In this document: positions 5,957 through 63,442 of the stretch, piece after piece
How positions within the stretch are numbered: position 1 is the stretch's first letter
Layout of the letters: every line of letters starts with the position of its first letter
DNA from: Bacteroides uniformis
GTDB taxonomy: Bacteria > Bacillota_I > Bacilli_A > RFN20 > CAG-288
Reading direction: 5' to 3'
NCBI GenBank assembly: GCA_963600815.1
Contig: CAVCCX010000001.1
Coordinates: 39,001 to 103,000 of the forward strand
Length of the DNA stretch: 64,000 bases
Program-made: the position numbers and the translations under genes
The notes under the pieces: model-generated
Told to the model about the DNA's origin: nothing
Databases searched by the model: none
The model's input: the letters and a program-made list of their open reading frames with translations, nothing else

Positions 5957-8089
5957 TTAACCTCTCTTCTTGATAATTTCTTCCTGGACAGATGCCGGAA
6001 CTTTCTGATAATTCGAGAATTCCATGGTGTAGATACCTCTACCCTGGGTCATGGAACGAAGATCAGAAATGTAACCGAACATGTTGGCGAGCGGAATCTT
6101 GGCAGTGATGACCTGGGCATTGGCCTTCTGGACCATGCCTTCGACCATACCACGGCGAGACGAGACATCGCCCATGACAGTTCCGACGTAGTCGAGAGGT
6201 GTCGTGATTTCAGCCTTGACGATTGGTTCAAGGATGATCGGATGGCACTTCTTGGCAGCGACTTTCAGGGCTTCCTGGGAAGCGAGCTTGTAGGCAGCTT
6301 CGGAAGAGTCGACATCATGATAGGAACCATAATGCAAGGTGGCCTTGACATCGATGACTGGATATCCGGCAACCATACCACGCTGGAAAGCATCGTTAAG
6401 ACCATCGATAGACGGCTTGATGAATTCCTTGGGGATGACACCACCGGTGATGGCATCGACAATTTCGTTGCCCTTTCCAGTGTTGGGTTCCATCTTGAAG
6501 ACGACGTGACCATACTGACCATGACCACCGGACTGCTTGATGTACTTACCTTCGCAGTCAGCGGCCTGCTCGATGGTTTCACGATAGGCAACCTGCGGAG
6601 CACCGACTCTGGTTTCGATGCCGAAGTCATTCTTCAGACGGGTGACATTGACATCCAACTGGAGTTCGCCGACACCGGCGATGATGCCCTGACCGGTTTC
6701 CTGATCGGTGTAGTAATGGAAGGTCGGATCTTCTTCGGTGAACTTGACAAGCAAGGCAGCCATTTTGTCCTGATCGCCTTTCTTGACAGGTTCGATGGCT
6801 TCGGAGATGACCGGTTCCTGGAACTTGATGGACTCAAGCTGGACAAGCGGATCGCCTTCGCCGACAATCGTATCACCGGTACGGGTGGCCTGGAAGCCGA
6901 CAGCAGCGGCGATTTCACCGGCCTTGGCTTCGGTGATGTTCTCGTGGGAATCGGCATTGACCAATTCGAGACGGGAAACTCTTTCCTTCACGCCCTTACG
7001 GACGTTGTAGACATAAGAACCGGACTTGACAGTACCGGAATAGATTCTGAAGAAGCAGAGGGTACCAAACTGGTCGGTGGTCAATTTGAAGGCCAAAGCG
7101 ACGAATGGAGCCTTTGGATCGACAGAGAGGACAACTTCGCCACCCTCTTTGTTGAGAGCGACCGGAGCCGGGACATCGAGCGGGGATGGGAGATAGTCAC
7201 GGACAGCGTCCAAGACATACTGAACACCCTTATTCTTGTAGGCGGAGCCAGGGATGGCCGGGAAGATCTTGCCGGCGATGACTTCCTTACGGATGGCGGC
7301 CTTGATTTCTTCGACTGTTGGGGTCTCTTCCATCAAGAGCTTCTCCATCAAAGTATCATCGTTGTTGGCAAGGTTTTCGATCATGATCTGATGATAGACC
7401 TTGGCCTGTTCGACATCGTGCTGGAAATCAGCAAGGAGCGGACTATCCAGATCAACGATGTTTGGCTGCATCTGTTCAGACTTTTTCGGATCGTGATCCC
7501 AGAGCCAGGCCTTCATTTCGACCAAGTCGATAAGACCGAGCAAAGTCTGGGAAATACCGACTGGGTAGGCGATGGCGCAGCCATTGGCACCCAATCTCTC
7601 CTTGATGGAAGCGACGGACATTTCATAGTCGGCGCCGGTGGCATCAAGTTTGTTGACGAAGACAATACGTGGAACGTTGTACTTGTCGGCCTGTCTCCAG
7701 ACAGTTTCGGTCTGCGGTTCAACGCCGTTCTTTCCGTCGAGAACGCAGACAGCACCATCGAGAACACGGAGAGATCTTTCAACCTCAGCGGTGAAGTCGA
7801 CGTGTCCAGGAGTGTCGATCAAGTTGATACGATAGTCCTTCCACATACAGGTGGTCGCAGCGGAGTAAATGGTGATACCACGCTTCTGTTCCTGTTCGTT
7901 GAAGTCCATAGCGGAAGCGCCGTCGTGGGTTTCACCGATCTTGTGGGTTTTTCCAGTATAGAAGAGAATACGCTCACTCGTCGTGGTTTTACCGGCATCG
8001 ATGTGAGCCATGATACCGATGTTTCTAACTCTTTCAAGCGGGGTAGCTTCGTACTTGGCTACCATCGCCTGGTCGTTATCCATTGCCAT
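5957..8089 (-). CDS. fusA: Elongation factor G.
   Basis: RNIGIMAHIDAGKTTTSERILFYTGK... over 710 aa. The first ATG is preceded by AAAGGAGA with a 7-nt spacer. Confidence 0.95.
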   Translation of the reverse strand: MAMDNDQAMVAKYEATPLERVRNIGIMAHIDAGKTTTSERILFYTGKTHKIGETHDGASAMDFNEQEQKRGITIYSAATTCMWKDYRINLIDTPGHVDFTAEVERSLRVLDGAVCVLDGKNGVEPQTETVWRQADKYNVPRIVFVNKLDATGADYEMSVASIKERLGANGCAIAYPVGISQTLLGLIDLVEMKAWLWDHDPKKSEQMQPNIVDLDSPLLADFQHDVEQAKVYHQIMIENLANNDDTLMEKLLMEETPTVEEIKAAIRKEVIAGKIFPAIPGSAYKNKGVQYVLDAVRDYLPSPLDVPAPVALNKEGGEVVLSVDPKAPFVALAFKLTTDQFGTLCFFRIYSGTVKSGSYVYNVRKGVKERVSRLELVNADSHENITEAKAGEIAAAVGFQATRTGDTIVGEGDPLVQLESIKFQEPVISEAIEPVKKGDQDKMAALLVKFTEEDPTFHYYTDQETGQGIIAGVGELQLDVNVTRLKNDFGIETRVGAPQVAYRETIEQAADCEGKYIKQSGGHGQYGHVVFKMEPNTGKGNEIVDAITGGVIPKEFIKPSIDGLNDAFQRGMVAGYPVIDVKATLHYGSYHDVDSSEAAYKLASQEALKVAAKKCHPIILEPIVKAEITTPLDYVGTVMGDVSSRRGMVEGMVQKANAQVITAKIPLANMFGYISDLRSMTQGRGIYTMEFSNYQKVPASVQEEIIKKRG

Positions 8090-30459: not shown

Positions 30460-30770
30460 ACCTCCTTGCTGGTGAATGAAACTTTCCTTTTAAGAGTTAA
30501 AAAAAGTCCTCAAACTCCTAAAAAGAAGTCTAAGGACGCATGACACGTGGTACCACCTTAGTTCATCATCTACTATCAACCGTCATAGATGACCTTCAGA
30601 ACCTTTTCAGATTCCTAGCGATAACGGGCTTCCCGGCAATCATTACTTTTGATTTCCTGATTGCAGCTCCAAGGCTCGTTCCCAGTCCTTAATCACCGTC
30701 CTCCCATCAACGACGGCTCGCTTTGGATGTATCTACTGGTACTACTCCTCTTCGTAGCTTTGCTCGAAAG
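30460..30770 (-). promoter_or_regulatory. Probable T-box riboswitch leader controlling the amino-acid ABC transporter operon.
   Basis: The minus strand carries AACUAAGGUGGUACCACGUG, which matches the T-box consensus AAUUAGGGUGGUACCGCG. The matching sequence is about 85 nt upstream of the start codon, at about 30545-30564. A hairpin GUCCU...AGGAC plus UUUUUUU follows at about 30499-30537 as the terminator. An AGUA-containing stem and a CCGUC/GACGG distal hairpin lie upstream. Confidence 0.45.
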
Positions 30771-44212: not shown

Positions 44213-44456
44213 ACAACACCTCCAACGCAGTCAAACGAATTTATTATACCCATATTCCCTTTCTTTTCCTATAAAGAAATCTTTCTTGAAAAAGAAAAGA
44301 AATTCTCAAAATATGAAAGAATCTTTCCACTCTATGCCAATCTTATAAAACATTCAAAAAAGGAGAAAGAATATAGATGAAACCTCTTTCTTGAAAATAT
44401 TGTTAAGCAAGCCCCCTCACTATGATAAACTAGCAGTGTCGTTTCACAATCATCGA

Positions 44457-44527
44457 TTCTTATATAATAGCTTTAATAAGGTAAGCAAGTTTCTACCTCC
44501 GGACCGTAAATCTGGAGACTATGAGAT
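44457..44527 (+). ncRNA. Purine (guanine-type) riboswitch aptamer upstream of the pur operon.
   Basis: CUUAUAUAAUAGCUUUAAUAAGGUAAGCAAGUUUCUACCUCCGGACCGUAAAUCUGGAGACUAUGAG. P1 is CUUAUA/UAUGAG. P2 and P3 hairpins are present. The conserved J2-3 AAGUUUCUACC and the P3 loop CCGUAAAU are present. The discriminator is C (..GAGACUAUG), indicating guanine/hypoxanthine specificity. Confidence 0.8.
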
Positions 44528-44650
44528 CAAAAGAAAATATCTTTTTTCTTTTGGTTATCATCTTAAAAAGGTGGTACATCCATGACAGAACAACAATTTA
44601 AGCCGTCCATCAATTTGTCGAACCCCCTTTTTTCGAGCAGGCATTTTCCA

Positions 44651-57878: not shown

Positions 57879-59534
57879 CTATTTCTCTTTCGGCATTTCC
57901 TTTGACCATGTGAACCCGAACAAGGCTTTCTCATCATTTCCAAGTTTGACGACCTCATGTTCCTTTATGATCTGCTGAATCTCTGTGCTGAATACATTGA
58001 TTCGGTCGATGGCAATGAAAATCTGCTTTTCGGATTTACTGTAGAGCCTAAACAGTCCTTCCACTGGTTCATCCCATATGTTCTTGAAAAGCATGGAATC
58101 GTTGATGATGAAGGGAAGAGAGGTCAGTTTTAGAATGGCAAGGTCAAACAGGATGAGGCTTTTATATTCCGTTCCTGTCCCTTTGTCTTTTGGAGTCTTA
58201 TAGGTATAGTTAGTAAAATCCGGAATGGAGATTGTCGGAGGAATTCTCTTCTCAAGATAGATGCTGTCATTCAGTTCTTCCAGTTTGGAATTGATTGCCT
58301 TTTCCATCTCAGATAAGACATATCCGAAGTCATCATTCATTTGTTTGCTGATGTCTCCAACTTTTCTCTTGATGGATTTTGTCTTCTCGTATATGGCAAT
58401 CTGGTTTTCGAGATTCTTTATTTCGCTTCTCTTGCAATAGACTGCATCCATGAACGTCTTTGGAATCCTTGGAGAGATATTATTTTCCAATAGAGTGCGA
58501 TTGATTTCATCGATTCTCTTTTGGATTTTATCGATCTTATCAGACAGTTCCTTTTTCTCGTTCTCGACTTCCTGGTTGACGTTTTTGCTCAATTGTTTTT
58601 GGAATTCGTTGATTTCCATGATGGACTTCAAATCGATTTCAGGAAAGAAGGTCGAGATTTTTTCTCTATCCGTTTCATCCATCAGCAGGGAATCTCCGGT
58701 CATATCCTGCAATGTCTTCAGCCGTATGGATAAAGATTTTCTTTCCCTGAAAAGACAGATCTGTTCTGATTTGAGATCGATATCCTTTTGTGAAAGGCTT
58801 TCGTCGATAGCGATGGAAGCCTGGTTTTGGTTCTTTATCAGAGAGTCGAGTTCATCCTTCAGCCTCTGTATTTCCTGCTTTGCGGATTCCATAGCAGACT
58901 CATTTTTTATCGGTGAATAGACAATGTTGTATTTCTGTGCCGCATCCATGGCCTTCTTTGCGTTCTTTGCTTCGGTGACTTTCTTGAAATCATCGTCAAC
59001 AATGCCAGTTTTTCCAAAGAGGTCGACCAGAACCCTGATTCCATTTTCAGCGCTCGAATCATTCTCGTATGTCTTCAATGGCTTTTTGACATCATAGTTG
59101 TTTTTTCCATATACCCTTGAAAATCCTTCAACCAACGCACGGAATGATTTCATGGCTGAAGATCCGAAATATCTCTCTTTGAGAAAATCATGCAAGCCAC
59201 TTATCGGCTTTTTTTCACCGATTGAACTGTAGGAAGCATCACATTCGAAATAATGGCTTGCATCAGCCGTGTCTCTGCGGAAATGATATTCGACCGCATC
59301 GAATTCAAATGTGAAATAGATGGTATGGTCACCGACATTTTCCCTCACGTCGGAATCACTAGCACCATAGGTTTTTCCACCAAAGCAAAAATCGACAATC
59401 ATCAATAGGCTTGATTTTCCAATCGAGTTCAGGGCGTCATCAGCACCCACAACACAGTTCAAACCGGAAGTGAAATGAATCGTCTTGTTTGGAATATTGT
59501 CAGAGAATCTGTCGCATCTTATTTCCTTCAGCAT
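57879..59534 (-). CDS. SMC-like coiled-coil ABC ATPase, LmuB-like (Lamassu/ABC-3C-type), third gene of the cassette.
   Basis: 551 aa. The N-terminal MLKEIRCDRFSDNIPNKTIHFTSGLNCVVGADDALNSIGKSSLL has a RecF/SbcC-like strand-plus-Walker-A layout with an extended P-loop ending GKS. The central 300 aa or so is Lys/Glu-rich coiled coil. The C-terminus carries Walker-B-like PFIINDS and QIFIAIDR. Confidence 0.6.
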   Translation of the reverse strand: MLKEIRCDRFSDNIPNKTIHFTSGLNCVVGADDALNSIGKSSLLMIVDFCFGGKTYGASDSDVRENVGDHTIYFTFEFDAVEYHFRRDTADASHYFECDASYSSIGEKKPISGLHDFLKERYFGSSAMKSFRALVEGFSRVYGKNNYDVKKPLKTYENDSSAENGIRVLVDLFGKTGIVDDDFKKVTEAKNAKKAMDAAQKYNIVYSPIKNESAMESAKQEIQRLKDELDSLIKNQNQASIAIDESLSQKDIDLKSEQICLFRERKSLSIRLKTLQDMTGDSLLMDETDREKISTFFPEIDLKSIMEINEFQKQLSKNVNQEVENEKKELSDKIDKIQKRIDEINRTLLENNISPRIPKTFMDAVYCKRSEIKNLENQIAIYEKTKSIKRKVGDISKQMNDDFGYVLSEMEKAINSKLEELNDSIYLEKRIPPTISIPDFTNYTYKTPKDKGTGTEYKSLILFDLAILKLTSLPFIINDSMLFKNIWDEPVEGLFRLYSKSEKQIFIAIDRINVFSTEIQQIIKEHEVVKLGNDEKALFGFTWSKEMPKEK

Positions 59535-59743
59535 TTTCTTATCCTCCCATCATCGACAAAATCAATCTTTCGGATGGCAAACAGGACGCTCATGCCATCA
59601 GAGAATTCCTTGGCATTCATTTTCGAGGAGACTTTCATGTAGATTTCCGTGATAAGCATATCCTTATCGATGGCGTTCAAAATCTCTGCCATCTGATAGA
59701 TGATTGTCGTCTTGTATCGGTTTACCTTATTCGGAAATTTCAT
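59528..59743 (-). CDS. Small middle-component protein of the three-gene cassette (LmuC/ABC-3C MC-like). The start is uncertain; the ORF extends to 59833.
   Basis: About 71-101 aa. It overlaps the upstream effector stop by 17 nt and the downstream ATPase start by 7 nt. No motifs. Confidence 0.45.
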   Translation of the reverse strand: MKFPNKVNRYKTTIIYQMAEILNAIDKDMLITEIYMKVSSKMNAKEFSDGMSVLFAIRKIDFVDDGRIRKC

Positions 59744-60839
59744 GGAACACCTCACAGCTTTGGATGAAATAGGAAACGATGATTTCAGCGATTGATTTCT
59801 CACAGCAGGCTGCATTTGCAACTTGGTCGACAAGACAATTGAAGACAGCTTCTTTATTATCGGATGATTGCTCTGCCTTTATGCAGGCTATCTTGATTGA
59901 TGCAGAAAGAAGTTCGTAGGAACGCTGTTCTTCTCCATCCAATTTGCCGAACATATCAAAAAGCGTCGAGAAATAAGAGGTGACATTCATCCTGACCTTG
60001 GCATAAAGGGCAAAGTCTGCTTTCTTATCGATCTTTTGATCGATTCTCAGACTCTTCATACTCAGCTTCACTTTGGTGACATTCTCGCATCTCAGAAGAT
60101 TATCGATCGCGTTCATCAGCTTTTCGTTCATTTCGATAGACCCAATCTGCTTTCTAAGTGAATTCTTTTCCTCTAGGGAAGCTTTTATCTTGAGAATGTC
60201 TTTTCCTAGTTGCCTATTTCGAAGCTTTTCGGCGCATTTCCGACAAAGCCCGATTGTTTTCGATTGTTCTTTCGGCGATGTGCCATCCAACGCAATTGCG
60301 ACAATTGCGTTCTCTTTGGACGAATCCAGATCGAGATGACATCCACAGCCCGGACAGATTCCTTCATCTTCCTGAAACAATTCAGAGCGAAGAGTCGCTG
60401 TTCCTTCAAGTTGAGCACTTCGAAACAGCGATGAATTATCCAATAAGATCGTTCGAAGCTGGTCAGAGACCTTCCTTGCAAAGTTGGTTTCATCAACACT
60501 CTCATCATGAAAATGAAACGTCTCGACAAAATCATCGACAGCATAGCCTTTGATTTCGTCATTCAATATTTCAGTCAGATTTGTCGTATCCAAAAATGGG
60601 TATATCTTTTGCGCTATCTTGGAAATCGAGCTTCTGCCTTCGCAAAGATTCCTCTTTTGCTTTTTCGTCATTTGAGCGATTTCTTCCTTCAGTCCTTCAT
60701 TTTCTGATCTTATTGAAGCCAATATGAGCAAATCGAAAAGCTCGGCCATGCTCTTGCATCGGCCCTTTAGAAAGGGATAGAGCAGCGTACACAAATCCGA
60801 AAATGTCATGATTCGAAATTTCCCCCGATTTCTCTCCAT
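59727..60839 (-). CDS. Putative effector of the cassette (LmuA-like position) with an HNH-like/zinc-ribbon motif.
   Basis: 370 aa. A central ICPGCGCHLDLD...(30 aa)...GLCRKCAEK has the paired CxxC spacing of an HNH or treble-clef nuclease. GAGGG RBS upstream. It is the first gene of the translationally coupled trio. Confidence 0.5.
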   Translation of the reverse strand: MERNRGKFRIMTFSDLCTLLYPFLKGRCKSMAELFDLLILASIRSENEGLKEEIAQMTKKQKRNLCEGRSSISKIAQKIYPFLDTTNLTEILNDEIKGYAVDDFVETFHFHDESVDETNFARKVSDQLRTILLDNSSLFRSAQLEGTATLRSELFQEDEGICPGCGCHLDLDSSKENAIVAIALDGTSPKEQSKTIGLCRKCAEKLRNRQLGKDILKIKASLEEKNSLRKQIGSIEMNEKLMNAIDNLLRCENVTKVKLSMKSLRIDQKIDKKADFALYAKVRMNVTSYFSTLFDMFGKLDGEEQRSYELLSASIKIACIKAEQSSDNKEAVFNCLVDQVANAACCEKSIAEIIVSYFIQSCEVFHEISE

Positions 60840-60966
60840 TTCCCTCGTTTCCCTAAGTGAAAAAACTGATTTTGTATTCTATTCGCGCTTCAGGAAAGTC
60901 TCTGGGTCCGGTAACAATATTGTACCAAAGATTTTCTAAATGCCAATTACATTAGGAGGTTTTTCA

Positions 60967-61635
60967 ATGAGAAAAACAATTTTTGACGACGGCTTCCAAG
61001 ACTACTTGGTCGAACAGGCTGATTTTGAAGGAAATGATGGCATTCCAATGCTGCTTGATTGCGACAATGCTGAGATTCCATCGAGACTTGTTCCTTTCAA
61101 CAAGGCGAGAACGGATTCCCTGAAAACTGGATACGTCCATTTCTACATTCATGATCGCCAATATGGCGAGATTCTGACGAATACCAAAAGGTATGTGCCG
61201 TTGCTGCGACAGTTCGATGGCGTGATAACGCCTGATCCGACGATTATCATCGGAAAGTCGAGATGTCTCCATACCATCAGCACCTATATGAACAGAGCCA
61301 TCGGATTCTATTTGCAGACCCAAGGCATCCCCATCATCCCAAACATACGATGGGGTGACCCATCGACATATGATTTCTGTTTTCTAGGAGTTCCAAAGAA
61401 TTCCCTTGTCAGTATCAGCACGCATGGCGCGATCAAAAAAGACAAATCGAATGGAAATCTTTTGAGAACATACTTCCGGATGGGTTTGAAGGAAATGCTT
61501 CTGCGCATAAAGCCATCGGATGTCATCGTCCATGGCTTCATGCCTGAGGACATATTCGGTGATTTTATGGAACAAACAAGATTCCATCGGTATCCATCTG
61601 AATTCGAACAGACTCATAAGAAAGGAGGTGAATAA
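60967..61635 (+). CDS. Hypothetical protein, DUF4417-like.
   Basis: AGGAGG RBS 7 nt before the ATG. The VHFYIHDRQY...NRAIGFYLQTQGIPIIPNIRWGDPSTYDFCFLGVPKNSLVSISTHG region resembles the DUF4417 family. Divergent from the Lamassu-like cassette. Confidence 0.45.
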   Translation: MRKTIFDDGFQDYLVEQADFEGNDGIPMLLDCDNAEIPSRLVPFNKARTDSLKTGYVHFYIHDRQYGEILTNTKRYVPLLRQFDGVITPDPTIIIGKSRCLHTISTYMNRAIGFYLQTQGIPIIPNIRWGDPSTYDFCFLGVPKNSLVSISTHGAIKKDKSNGNLLRTYFRMGLKEMLLRIKPSDVIVHGFMPEDIFGDFMEQTRFHRYPSEFEQTHKKGGE

Positions 61636-61637
61636 AG

Positions 61638-62006
61638 ATGGGCGTCACAATCAGAAGAAATTCCAAGCCGGTAAAAGCAAATCCCTTTTATCATTTCGAT
61701 ACAGAAAGCGGTTATTTCGGGATCCATAAACCATCGAACAAGGAAACCACAAGGACGATTTATACCAAAGGCGATCCAGAAGAAGAAGCAAGAAAGCTGT
61801 TCGAGCAGTTTACTTCCGGTGGTAAAATAGAAGTATTAGTCGAAGGCCACATGTGGGGCTGTTCTTTGGATGATGGCACATATGTCACGCTTAGAATTAA
61901 TCATCCACCAGGACATGCTCCAGCAGTCGAACTTTCGGTGAGACAATCGAAAGACCCTGCCGGAATTGTCGGACAAAAAATACATTTTGAAAAGGAGCAC
62001 AAATAA
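61638..62006 (+). CDS. Hypothetical protein.
   Basis: 122 aa. It starts 3 nt after the upstream stop. No motifs. Confidence 0.4.
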   Translation: MGVTIRRNSKPVKANPFYHFDTESGYFGIHKPSNKETTRTIYTKGDPEEEARKLFEQFTSGGKIEVLVEGHMWGCSLDDGTYVTLRINHPPGHAPAVELSVRQSKDPAGIVGQKIHFEKEHK

Positions 62007-62008
62007 TC

Positions 62009-62656
62009 ATGAAAATATTAGACAATTCAATAAATGGCGAAGGCCTTGAGCATCTAAAGTCAATAATCGGGAACAAAATCATTTCGTTTTCTCATAGGGC
62101 GCTTGATATGAGATTCCCAAATTCGAATGTTTTCTTCATGCGCTTAGGACTTATTTGCTCGAATGGAGTCTTTATCCTCGATAACCGAGTCGACTGGGAG
62201 GATGATTGGTTCTGCTCCCCTGACTACACGCCTCATTTTGTTTTCAACAAAATTGAAAATGAAAAGCAGTTTCCCAATTATGATGGATTCAATCTTGAAG
62301 GAATGGCAAAGTTCCCTGTCAATGAGACTGTCATTGATATCCTAATGGTTCATGATGAGGTTTTAGTTCTTAAATCCGATGAACCCTATGAAGAAATCCT
62401 AAGCACGGAAGGCGTTGTTTTCGTGACTGATAAAAGACAATATGCCTTCTATAAGGAAACCACATGGCTAAATGAAATCACTCTTGAATACAAAGGGCAT
62501 GATGTGCTTTCGAAGCTCGAGGAAATTAAGAAGCATTGGAATGTGTTTGCAAAACCATATGATGGGAAAATCAAAAGAAAACTTATTCATCTTGCTTCAG
62601 GCAAAGAAGAAGTCATCGAAGAAGATACGATCATCGGCGACGTTTACGATGACTGA
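62009..62656 (+). CDS. Hypothetical protein.
   Basis: 215 aa. It starts 3 nt after the upstream stop and is followed by a terminator. Confidence 0.4.
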   Translation: MKILDNSINGEGLEHLKSIIGNKIISFSHRALDMRFPNSNVFFMRLGLICSNGVFILDNRVDWEDDWFCSPDYTPHFVFNKIENEKQFPNYDGFNLEGMAKFPVNETVIDILMVHDEVLVLKSDEPYEEILSTEGVVFVTDKRQYAFYKETTWLNEITLEYKGHDVLSKLEEIKKHWNVFAKPYDGKIKRKLIHLASGKEEVIEEDTIIGDVYDD

Positions 62657-62707
62657 ATGTACATTCTGACTTTCTATGAAATCAGAAACATCGGCTTATA
62701 CGAGAGG

Positions 62708-62745
62708 GAGAGGTCAGCCCACAAGGCTGGCCTCTCATTTTGTTC
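62708..62745 (+). terminator. Rho-independent terminator after the three-gene plus-strand block.
   Basis: GAGAGGTCAGCCcacaaGGCTGGCCTCTC followed by ATTTTGTT. Confidence 0.55.
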
Positions 62746-63442
62746 GTTCTAATTTTCAAATCCACGCATGGCCTTTCAGAGAGTACATTTGCTTTTCTCA
62801 TCATGATTTCTTCTCTTTTTCACAATTTCATAAAGAACTGAAACATCTGGAGAAGAACCAAACATATCATTCTCATACATGTTCAATGGAGAGACATTAT
62901 TTCGGTTCTCCAATTCAAACAGGAATTCTATATTTTCTTTTAAGTCCCGATTTGCACATGCGTGGTTTTTGTAGGCTGCTCACAGTTGTTCTTGTAGTAT
63001 GTTTTGGCCCCTGAAGAGTCATATCAAAATCAGATTCGTTGCACTTCCAATCGTTTTCTGGAGTGCGAATCGGTAGGATTAAAATAAATGCTTTTTACAA
63101 ATTCTTAATGAATTTCATTTCGAAACAATTCTTATGCAATAGAGCATATCCAGTCATGATATAAAGATTTTCAGAATCCTATTCAACCCATAAGGGAGTA
63201 CCGGCAGAATTGATGAAAGTTTCATGAAAGTGAGGGCTTTAGTCAAAAAATGGATGAGCTATTGTGTCGAATTGTCGGAAAAGCCCGAAATCAAGGGACT
63301 TTTCACCACGCATCTGCAAATCGGGAATTTTTCTTTTTTTTGAATTTGTCTTTTTCTATATCATTCAAAGTCATACAAAAAGCAGCCACAAAGAAACTTT
63401 TTACGATCTATTCATGGCAGCGATGGTTCGAATGATTTATCC

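Follow-up and report, generated by a model that had tools for sequence, protein, structure and literature searches.

An undescribed, horizontally mobile three-gene module around a DUF4417 protein in gut and rumen bacteria, and its possible role as an inducible conflict system

Introduction

What are three tightly packed genes of no obvious function doing beside a cassette of the Lamassu type, and are they a local curiosity or one copy of something more general? The genes lie on the plus strand of a 64,000-nucleotide (nt) stretch of contig CAVCCX010000001.1 (the window, meaning the whole stretch analysed), and we call them G1, G2 and G3 in their order; coordinates refer to the window, and L-numbers denote the homologous loci or contigs with which it was compared. 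An earlier reading of the letters alone, hereafter the original prediction, had taken G1 for a DUF4417-like protein and the other two for orphans.

Here we show that the trio belongs to a module of three proteins, undescribed and horizontally mobile, and we establish its conserved linkage, its translational coupling, its mobility and its association with particular regulators and with an RNA leader. None of the three proteins has a characterised relative, while the general architecture, in which regulators accompany an effector operon in variable regions, is already known. DUF4417 (PF14386) is widespread in phages and bacteria, the literature that we searched reports no function for it, and one large clade always comes with two unrecognised partners. 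The module is a candidate for a first functional handle on this domain, including its fusions to ParB in phages. The explanation that we favour, with a probability of about one half, is that the module is an inducible conflict system of the anti-phage, abortive-infection type or of a toxin-like type, in which G1 would be an enzyme directed at nucleic acid to which G2 and G3 are bound as partners, G3 being a variable inhibitor or specificity subunit.

Results and discussion

The trio belongs to a conserved module

60967-61635, plus strand: G1, 222 amino acids (aa), DUF4417 protein, strongly conserved and enzyme-like core of the module
61638-62006, plus strand: G2, 122 aa, undescribed family, mostly basic among relatives
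62009-62656, plus strand: G3, 215 aa, undescribed family, acidic and fast-evolving
62708-62745, plus strand: intrinsic terminator closing the trio operon, a stem-loop (62708-62736) followed by a T-rich tail

The coordinates of the open reading frames (ORFs) bear out three plus-strand genes of the lengths first given, separated by 2 nt each (61636-61637 and 62007-62008) and not by 3; position 60840, from which the trio had been counted, begins the intergenic region ahead of it. The strong AGGAGG ribosome-binding site claimed for G1 is present at 60954-60959, 7 nt 5' of the ATG, and Shine-Dalgarno (SD) motifs can likewise be read from the sequence for G2 (AGGAGG, 61623-61628) and for G3 (AAGGAG, 61992-61997). 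The clear terminator is there too, with a 12-bp stem (eight of its pairs G-C) and a 5-nt loop, followed by ATTTTGTT. No hydrophobic segment is found in any of the three proteins.

Scanning the G1 alignment against 185,579 species-representative genomes yielded 80 loci from gut and rumen samples, with G1 at 51-78% identity and Lachnospiraceae, Oscillospiraceae, Acutalibacteraceae, Erysipelotrichaceae, Ruminococcus and Selenomonas as the main hosts; at least 80 species of gut and rumen bacteria have the module. Hidden Markov models built from a few close homologs show G1 immediately followed by a homolog of G2, and this in turn by a homolog of G3, with E-values of 1e-8 to 1e-19 in distant members. 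The order G1-G2-G3 is kept, with all three ORFs intact, in each of the 70 loci that have enough downstream sequence, and these loci lie in varied genomic contexts, so that the refuting condition set for the original prediction is not borne out. The arrangement extends to a G1 of 30% identity (L093, metagenomic scaffold MT835627). That G2 and G3 had looked like orphans can be explained because a word-indexed search returns so few clusters (11 and 15, respectively). An exhaustive profile search of 1.84 billion proteins finds for G2 a family of 159 representatives at 50% identity, nearly all of them standalone proteins of 120-150 aa, and both partners occur wherever this clade of DUF4417 does.

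Spacing is tight throughout the family. Across about 85 loci the median gap is -1 nt between G1 and G2 and +1 nt between G2 and G3, which therefore points to translational coupling and, by inference, to a protein complex. The flanks of the module, on the other hand, differ from locus to locus, at unrelated chromosomal sites. In four loci (L054, L060, L061 and L065) the module, with or without the XRE/ImmA genes described below, adjoins spoIVB, which encodes a sporulation protease (Peptidase_S55 plus PDZ); this suggests a recurrent insertion site.

G1 is a full-length DUF4417 protein

The assignment of G1 stands. Its match to PF14386 has an E-value of 3e-38 and 131.6 bits, against a gathering cut-off of 28.9, and spans positions 8-180 of the 183 in the profile, as expected of a full-length member; all 77 aligned relatives match DUF4417 too. 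Additional matches are to phrog_8680 and to the C-terminal half of phrog_940. The AlphaFold2 model, made with 77 sequences, has a predicted local distance difference test (pLDDT) value of 92 and a predicted template modelling score of 0.89, and displays an alternating beta/alpha pattern. Of the positions compared across 83 sequences, 24 reach a conservation of 98% or more, including H58, D63, D90, R110, N126, R128, W129 and E214, and C100 and H153 one of 90% or more; in the model, many of the conserved positions come directly after predicted beta-strands.

A Foldseek search of the PDB with this model gave nothing below E = 1e-3. The best hits were TIM-barrel enzymes, namely aldolases, AP endonuclease 2 (AP endonuclease family 2) and tRNA-guanine transglycosylase, at E of 8.6e-3 or more and a template modelling (TM) score of about 0.36, so the modelled resemblance to a TIM barrel is weak and serves as a lead only, not as evidence of family. 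Because invariant His, Asp, Arg and Asn residues follow predicted strands, because of this faint resemblance and because phage relatives are frequently fused to ParB, a DNA-clamping domain, a catalytic role of G1 on nucleic acid seems plausible. Three more specific identities considered as leads (UDG-like, PHP-like and DpdA/TGT-like) received no supporting result, and we do not claim them.

DUF4417 had been called common in phage contexts, which applies to distant relatives alone. Phage proteins have the domain in common with G1 but are less than 31% identical to it; they are often ParB-CTPase fusions or encoded beside terminase genes, and they come without G2 and G3. Such are ORF28 of Streptococcus phage MM1, a DUF4417 protein that is encoded ahead of the terminase genes and bears the annotation ParB-like in the record of a related phage, and a mycobacteriophage DUF4417 gene annotated as 'nuclease', both without G2 and G3. 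The product of MM1 ORF29, the partner of that DUF4417 gene, was compared with G2 and G3 using hhalign, which shows no relation. G2 itself is found in two of the 2.9 million viral contigs of IMG/VR, and a plasmid search returned only five hits, all distant DUF4417 proteins, with no close copies of the module.

G2 and G3 belong to two unrecognised families

As had been foreseen, G2 and G3 contain no recognisable motif: as single proteins they match no family in Pfam, NCBIfam, PHROGs or PADLOC, Pfam giving a sub-threshold match to RpoY (E = 0.12) for G2 and nothing for G3. A Pfam search with 61 diverse G2 and 65 diverse G3 members found nothing either, and profile searches of the PDB sequences with G1, G2 and G3 gave nothing below E = 0.6. 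The AlphaFold2 model of G2 (pLDDT 89) has two helices, one of them N-terminal, and a sheet of six strands, and Foldseek finds for it no match in the PDB or BFVD with E below 1e-3. A barnase-like or BECR-like toxin, considered as a lead for G2, received no supporting result and is not claimed.

Conservation falls from G1 to G2 to G3. G2 is about 30% identical to its distant members, which keep N8, G28, R39, D79, R86, K114, H116 and F117, and G3, the fastest-diverging of the three, is 17-24% identical to its own, with four near-invariant positions. The charges of the partners are opposed, the median isoelectric point (pI) of G2 being 9.5 across relatives and that of G3 lying between 4.3 and 5.3 in 85 of 85 members. 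Tandem paralogs of G3 are found in eight loci (including L029, L031, L032, L033, L040, L051 and L077), and extra G2-G3 pairs in L018 (3578-4590) and L090 (6663-7663). Comparison by hhalign shows no relation of G3 to G1 or of G2 to G3. As a side observation, the G2 profile matches nine separate stretches of P0153, a giant protein of 3105 aa with Ig-like repeats, for 74.7 bits in all; this is probably an artefact of low complexity, repeats or composition.

These features raise the possibility of a toxin-immunity or addiction module, in which G2 would be a toxin, G3 an antitoxin or immunity protein that stabilises the island, and G1 a processing or accessory enzyme. Like type II toxin-antitoxin pairs and polymorphic toxin-immunity pairs, G2 and G3 are a small basic protein followed by an acidic, fast-evolving and sometimes duplicated one, encoded by genes that abut or overlap, and their complementary charges, their tight spacing, the tandem G3 paralogs and the extra pairs all speak for this explanation. 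XRE/COG2856-type genes, moreover, are classic companions of toxin-antitoxin systems. Yet neither protein has a recognised toxin or antitoxin domain, the G2 model shows no toxin fold, and the G2 of the window is near neutral, with a pI of 7.9. The module also adds to the pair an obligatory third gene that precedes it and that is larger, enzyme-like and the best conserved; its presence in every complete locus is left unexplained by a plain two-gene toxin-antitoxin model. We consider addiction unlikely.

Regulators upstream of the module

What lies upstream of G1 was tallied in the 68 loci with enough sequence on that side. In 27 of them, a gene for an XRE-family helix-turn-helix protein and one for a Peptidase_M78 protein of about 184 aa (ImmA/IrrE, with HExxH) precede the trio on its own strand; the M78 gene alone was called in four loci, a Fic gene is found in seven, an XRE-M78 fusion accompanied by a PIN gene in four, a divergent ABC-3C system in eight, and something else or nothing in 18. 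XRE and M78 genes either overlap or directly adjoin one another, 150-360 nt upstream of G1, and therefore look like a separate regulatory unit. By domain match (HTH_3/HTH_31 plus Peptidase_M78), they are the same kind of unit as the CapH/CapP, ImmR/ImmA and DdrO/IrrE switches, from which the present case differs in that the M78 proteins of the relatives are short and that the window contains no such pair. Two reports describe CapH/CapP-type pairs as regulators of many immune operons in response to DNA damage (bioRxiv 10.1101/2022.04.27.489752; PMC13228613), and two others describe M78/XRE pairs as governing repair genes in Deinococcus (PMC10904395, PMC12828697).

It had been proposed to examine the neighbourhoods of homologs for a recurrent link to defence genes. 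Among 117 flanking proteins, defence-type matches were obtained to AbiLi (best E = 2e-87), PDC-S01, PDC-S05, PDC-M12A, capH/capP and AAA_21, so that defence-type families and regulators are indeed present, but many of the flanking genes are metabolic, and the enrichment, being one of raw hits, is suggestive only.

The same scan matched resolvases and integrases, and these few genes bear on a different explanation, namely that the trio is a decayed regulatory region of a prophage or mobile element, of the ImmR/ImmA kind, whose cargo has no function for the host. The order of the XRE and ImmA genes resembles immR-immA of ICEBs1, and phage DUF4417 genes adjoin terminase genes, as seen above. Decay is difficult to reconcile with three intact ORFs in 70 of 70 loci and with the strong purifying conservation of G1, and an origin as mobile-element debris with the presence of only two IMG/VR contigs, the lack of close plasmid copies and the lack of any phage-structural-like gene among the families most often matched by the flanking proteins. 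We judge this explanation very improbable.

A structured RNA leader in relatives

Relatives of the window have, shortly 5' of G1 and on its coding strand, a conserved element of about 114 nt that is structured, with three covarying helices. Instances, followed by about 40 more, are:

L059:7831-7945, coding strand: leader (its predicted fold gave the structure of the alignment)
L026:7797-7906, coding strand: leader
L047:7830-7944, coding strand: leader
L063:7825-7938, coding strand: leader
L077:1582-1701, coding strand: leader

When 16 leaders were aligned with MAFFT under the structure derived from L059, 73% of the cells were paired, versus 34-44% with slid partners, 25 of the 41 pairs showed compensatory changes, and the observed score was reached by no shuffle. 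A covariance model of 114 positions and 35 pairs then gave, at E below 0.01, coding-strand matches immediately 5' of G1 in about 45 loci, independently of which gene lies further upstream, and found no leader in the window or in any locus linked to ABC-3C. In 33 of the model's matches, compensatory changes occur at 31 of the 35 pairs and 75% of the cells are paired, versus 36-44% in slid controls, in an alignment that was itself fitted to the model.

Part of the 3' arm of the long helix is complementary to the SD region of G1. In 16 of the 80 loci, where 0.8 would be expected, the complement is perfect over at least 8 nt, and changes on one side are matched on the other, for instance GAAAGGTGC with GCACCTTTC and GAGGTATT with AATACCTC. 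In these covarying helices, and in an anti-SD that varies together with the SD, the element is like known leaders that sequester the SD (riboswitches and leader-peptide attenuators); it differs from them in matching no family of Rfam, where nothing relevant was found at gathering or E-value thresholds, and it is absent from the window. On this comparative evidence we regard it as a candidate new cis-regulatory RNA.

In many loci, among them L059 (about 7790-7845), L062, L066, L074, L089, L069, L076 and L087, a short upstream ORF of 7-15 codons, preceded by a good SD, terminates within the leader's first helix. The encoded peptides are rich in lysine (MIVxxKKEK..., ...QLNKEKRP, MIVIIKKEKASM, MLIIKKNKH), and the ORF may provide a leader peptide or attenuator, or else be a by-product of the A-rich conserved 5' end.

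Given the XRE/ImmA pair and the leader, the module would therefore normally be under both transcriptional and post-transcriptional control. Dual control is to be expected for a product that is harmful if mistimed, but it is compatible with a metabolite-sensing operon too. This brings in the possibility that the module is an accessory enzyme operon responsive to stress or to a metabolite, with a riboswitch-like leader and a DdrO/IrrE-like damage switch, and devoted to the repair, modification or detoxification of DNA, nucleotides or a small molecule. A structured leader that sequesters the SD is what such an operon might have, the Deinococcus repair genes offer a precedent for its M78/XRE control in the reports cited above, the weak fold hits of G1 include AP endonuclease family 2, tRNA-guanine transglycosylase and aldolases, and many of the neighbours are metabolic. 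Its distribution, however, is sporadic and its sites are varied, its alternative partners are Fic, PIN and ABC-3C genes, G3 diverges very fast and is duplicated, which is unusual for the helper of an enzyme, and the lineage of the window has lost the leader while keeping the trio. An enzyme operon of this kind appears to us somewhat unlikely.

The ABC-3C neighbour and the six-gene block

Where relatives have the regulatory pair and the leader, the window has the following features:

60840-60966: divergent control region of 127 nt, common to the trio and the minus-strand operon, with a minus-strand promoter and a near-palindrome
59727-60839, minus strand: ABC-3C/Lamassu effector, 370 aa, with a C-terminal Pfam CTD11 match (E = 9e-24)
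59528-59743, minus strand: ABC-3C middle component MC7, 71 aa (Pfam MC7, E = 1.2e-11); the identical contig L098 has a gene call of this length
57879-59534, minus strand: ABC-3C/Lamassu SMC-like ABC ATPase, 551 aa (Pfam DUF2326, PF10088, E = 6.6e-19)

The cassette next to the trio is therefore complete, with a DUF2326 ATPase, MC7 and a CTD11 effector, and its description as Lamassu-like is fair because a review places ABC-3C systems in the Lamassu superfamily (PMC10586767). Further matches of the ATPase are to phrog_5467 (E = 4e-117) and to the PADLOC models PDC-M68B (6.8e-12) and LmuB (9.7e-5). The effector has a CxxC...CxxC segment at residues ~149-205, ahead of CTD11, and a weak match to phrog_589 (HNH, E = 0.014), from which it is probably an HNH-type nuclease. 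The proteins of the trio match no component model of these systems; the trio co-migrates with the cassette as a neighbour and is not one of its described components.

Nucleotide homology between the window and 20 other loci is confined to 57,899-62,613, that is, to exactly these six genes, with unrelated flanks on either side. Cassette and trio thus make up an accessory island, as the original prediction had it, and in the lineage of the window this block of 4.7 kb moves as a unit. In a relative of 96% identity, the block is found at the same site after the pur operon.

Adjacency to Lamassu is a trait of the nearest subclade (about 15 loci) and not of the module in general. Within the nearest G1 clade (at least 60% identity), all informative loci have the trio head-to-head with ABC-3C:

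ABC-3C-linked loci, head-to-head: window, L002, L003, L008-L013, L015-L021

In L001 and L016 there is a second variant of ABC-3C, with MC6 and a faint match to DUF2326, and L014 has the trio with a remnant of the effector only. Compared with the window, the ABC ATPase of L016 and L019 is 70-75% identical and their G3 only 36%, while in L008 the ATPase is 57% and G3 63% identical. From these discordant identities, the two halves recombine and yet stay adjacent. In addition, ATPases of related ABC-3C systems occur in five prophage records and a close relative of G1 in no phage record; since, moreover, most trios have no ABC-3C beside them, each half appears able to stand alone.

The control region between the halves had been described as a 127-nt shared promoter region. 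Its length and the divergence of the two operons are as stated, and the minus strand has a strong, near-consensus promoter with an extended -10 (TTGGCA, a 16-nt spacer, TG and TACAAT, from 60946 to 60919), whereas a scan of the region gave no good match to a plus-strand sigma-70 promoter. The near-palindrome GGTAACAATATTGTACC (60910-60926) overlaps the minus-strand -10 element, and its core ACAATATTGT (60914-60923) is conserved in L016 and L019, with partial conservation in L008, L010 and L013. It may be an operator.

L016 has a second operon on the same contig as its normal block of trio plus ABC-3C. There, at L016:5503-10221, a second DUF4417 gene (282 aa) is followed by genes for proteins of 168 and 121 aa and faces the second ABC-3C variant, giving a second pairing of DUF4417 with ABC-3C. 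The two downstream genes are not relatives of G2 or G3 by hhalign.

Could the trio then be, in this lineage, a functional extension of Lamassu/ABC-3C, such as an extra sensor, a regulator or a second effector? The pairing of the trio with ABC-3C in all informative loci of the nearest clade, be it with either of two variants or with a remnant, is what one would expect from such an extension, as are an adjacency that outlasts recombination between the halves, a palindrome conserved in the common 127-nt region and the second DUF4417 operon of L016 in front of the second ABC-3C variant. But most trios do without an adjacent ABC-3C, the prophages with this type of ABC-3C ATPase number five while phage DUF4417 proteins are all less than 31% identical to G1, and L014 keeps the trio with an effector remnant alone. 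Persistent adjacency is compatible with cooperation or co-regulation, and equally with one ancestral event that put the two side by side, after which they travelled as a block. Such an extension seems to us quite improbable.

A proposed inducible conflict system

We return to the inducible conflict system, which we prefer. In the proposed mechanism, G1 would be the catalytic effector and act on nucleic acid, and G2 and G3 would be in complex with it. G3, being acidic, rapidly diverging and sometimes duplicated, would be the subunit that inhibits or confers specificity; once it is displaced, on infection or DNA damage, the activity of G1 would be free. In relatives, the XRE repressor and ImmA/IrrE pair, together with a leader that pairs with the ribosome-binding site of G1, would gate expression, and in the lineage of the window the pair and the leader are replaced by the head-to-head ABC-3C system. 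Neighbours of the XRE plus M78, Fic, PIN and ABC-3C kinds and the variable sites of the module are consistent with this reading, and so are the strict linkage of the three genes, the fall in conservation from G1 to G3 with its contrast of charge, the leader, the ParB fusions of phage DUF4417 and an adjacency to ABC-3C that outlasts recombination.

Several points weigh against it. PADLOC-DB v2.0.0 has no family that matches G1, G2 or G3 at E up to 1, and fold matches indicate no activity, the best TM score of the G1 model being about 0.36 and the G2 model having no match. Switches of the XRE/ImmA type govern DNA repair genes and the induction of mobile elements as well as immunity, and structured leaders are typical of metabolic operons too. 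Finally, the flanks include many ordinary metabolic genes, and the defence-island signal is therefore moderate.

A more far-reaching version would make the module a new three-protein anti-invader system, with an enzyme that has no detected fold relative, two families outside Pfam, an RNA leader of its own, riboswitch-like or controlled by a leader peptide, and interchangeable upstream sensors (XRE/ImmA, Fic, PIN or a whole Lamassu system), and functionally wired to Lamassu in the lineage of the window. This proposal is possible and quite tentative. At 2.8-4.7 kb the module is a small, clonable candidate for a possible new system of the defence or toxin kind in Firmicutes of gut and rumen, and the trio with its Lamassu neighbour provides a test case for the cooperation of neighbouring defence modules.

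Other features of the window

Downstream of the trio terminator, the approximately 700 nt that precede the PFK-like gene (62746-63442) contain no minus-strand ORF of 50 aa or more and only short ORFs on the plus strand, the longest of 112 aa, and have no homology to any compared locus; this segment may be a decayed gene or a scar of the island. Elsewhere in the window, a T-box leader was found at 30529-30764 on the minus strand (123.5 bits), and a purine riboswitch at 44440-44541 on the plus strand (71.7 bits), on the same strand as the pur genes (53.7-57.8 kb) and about 9 kb upstream of them.

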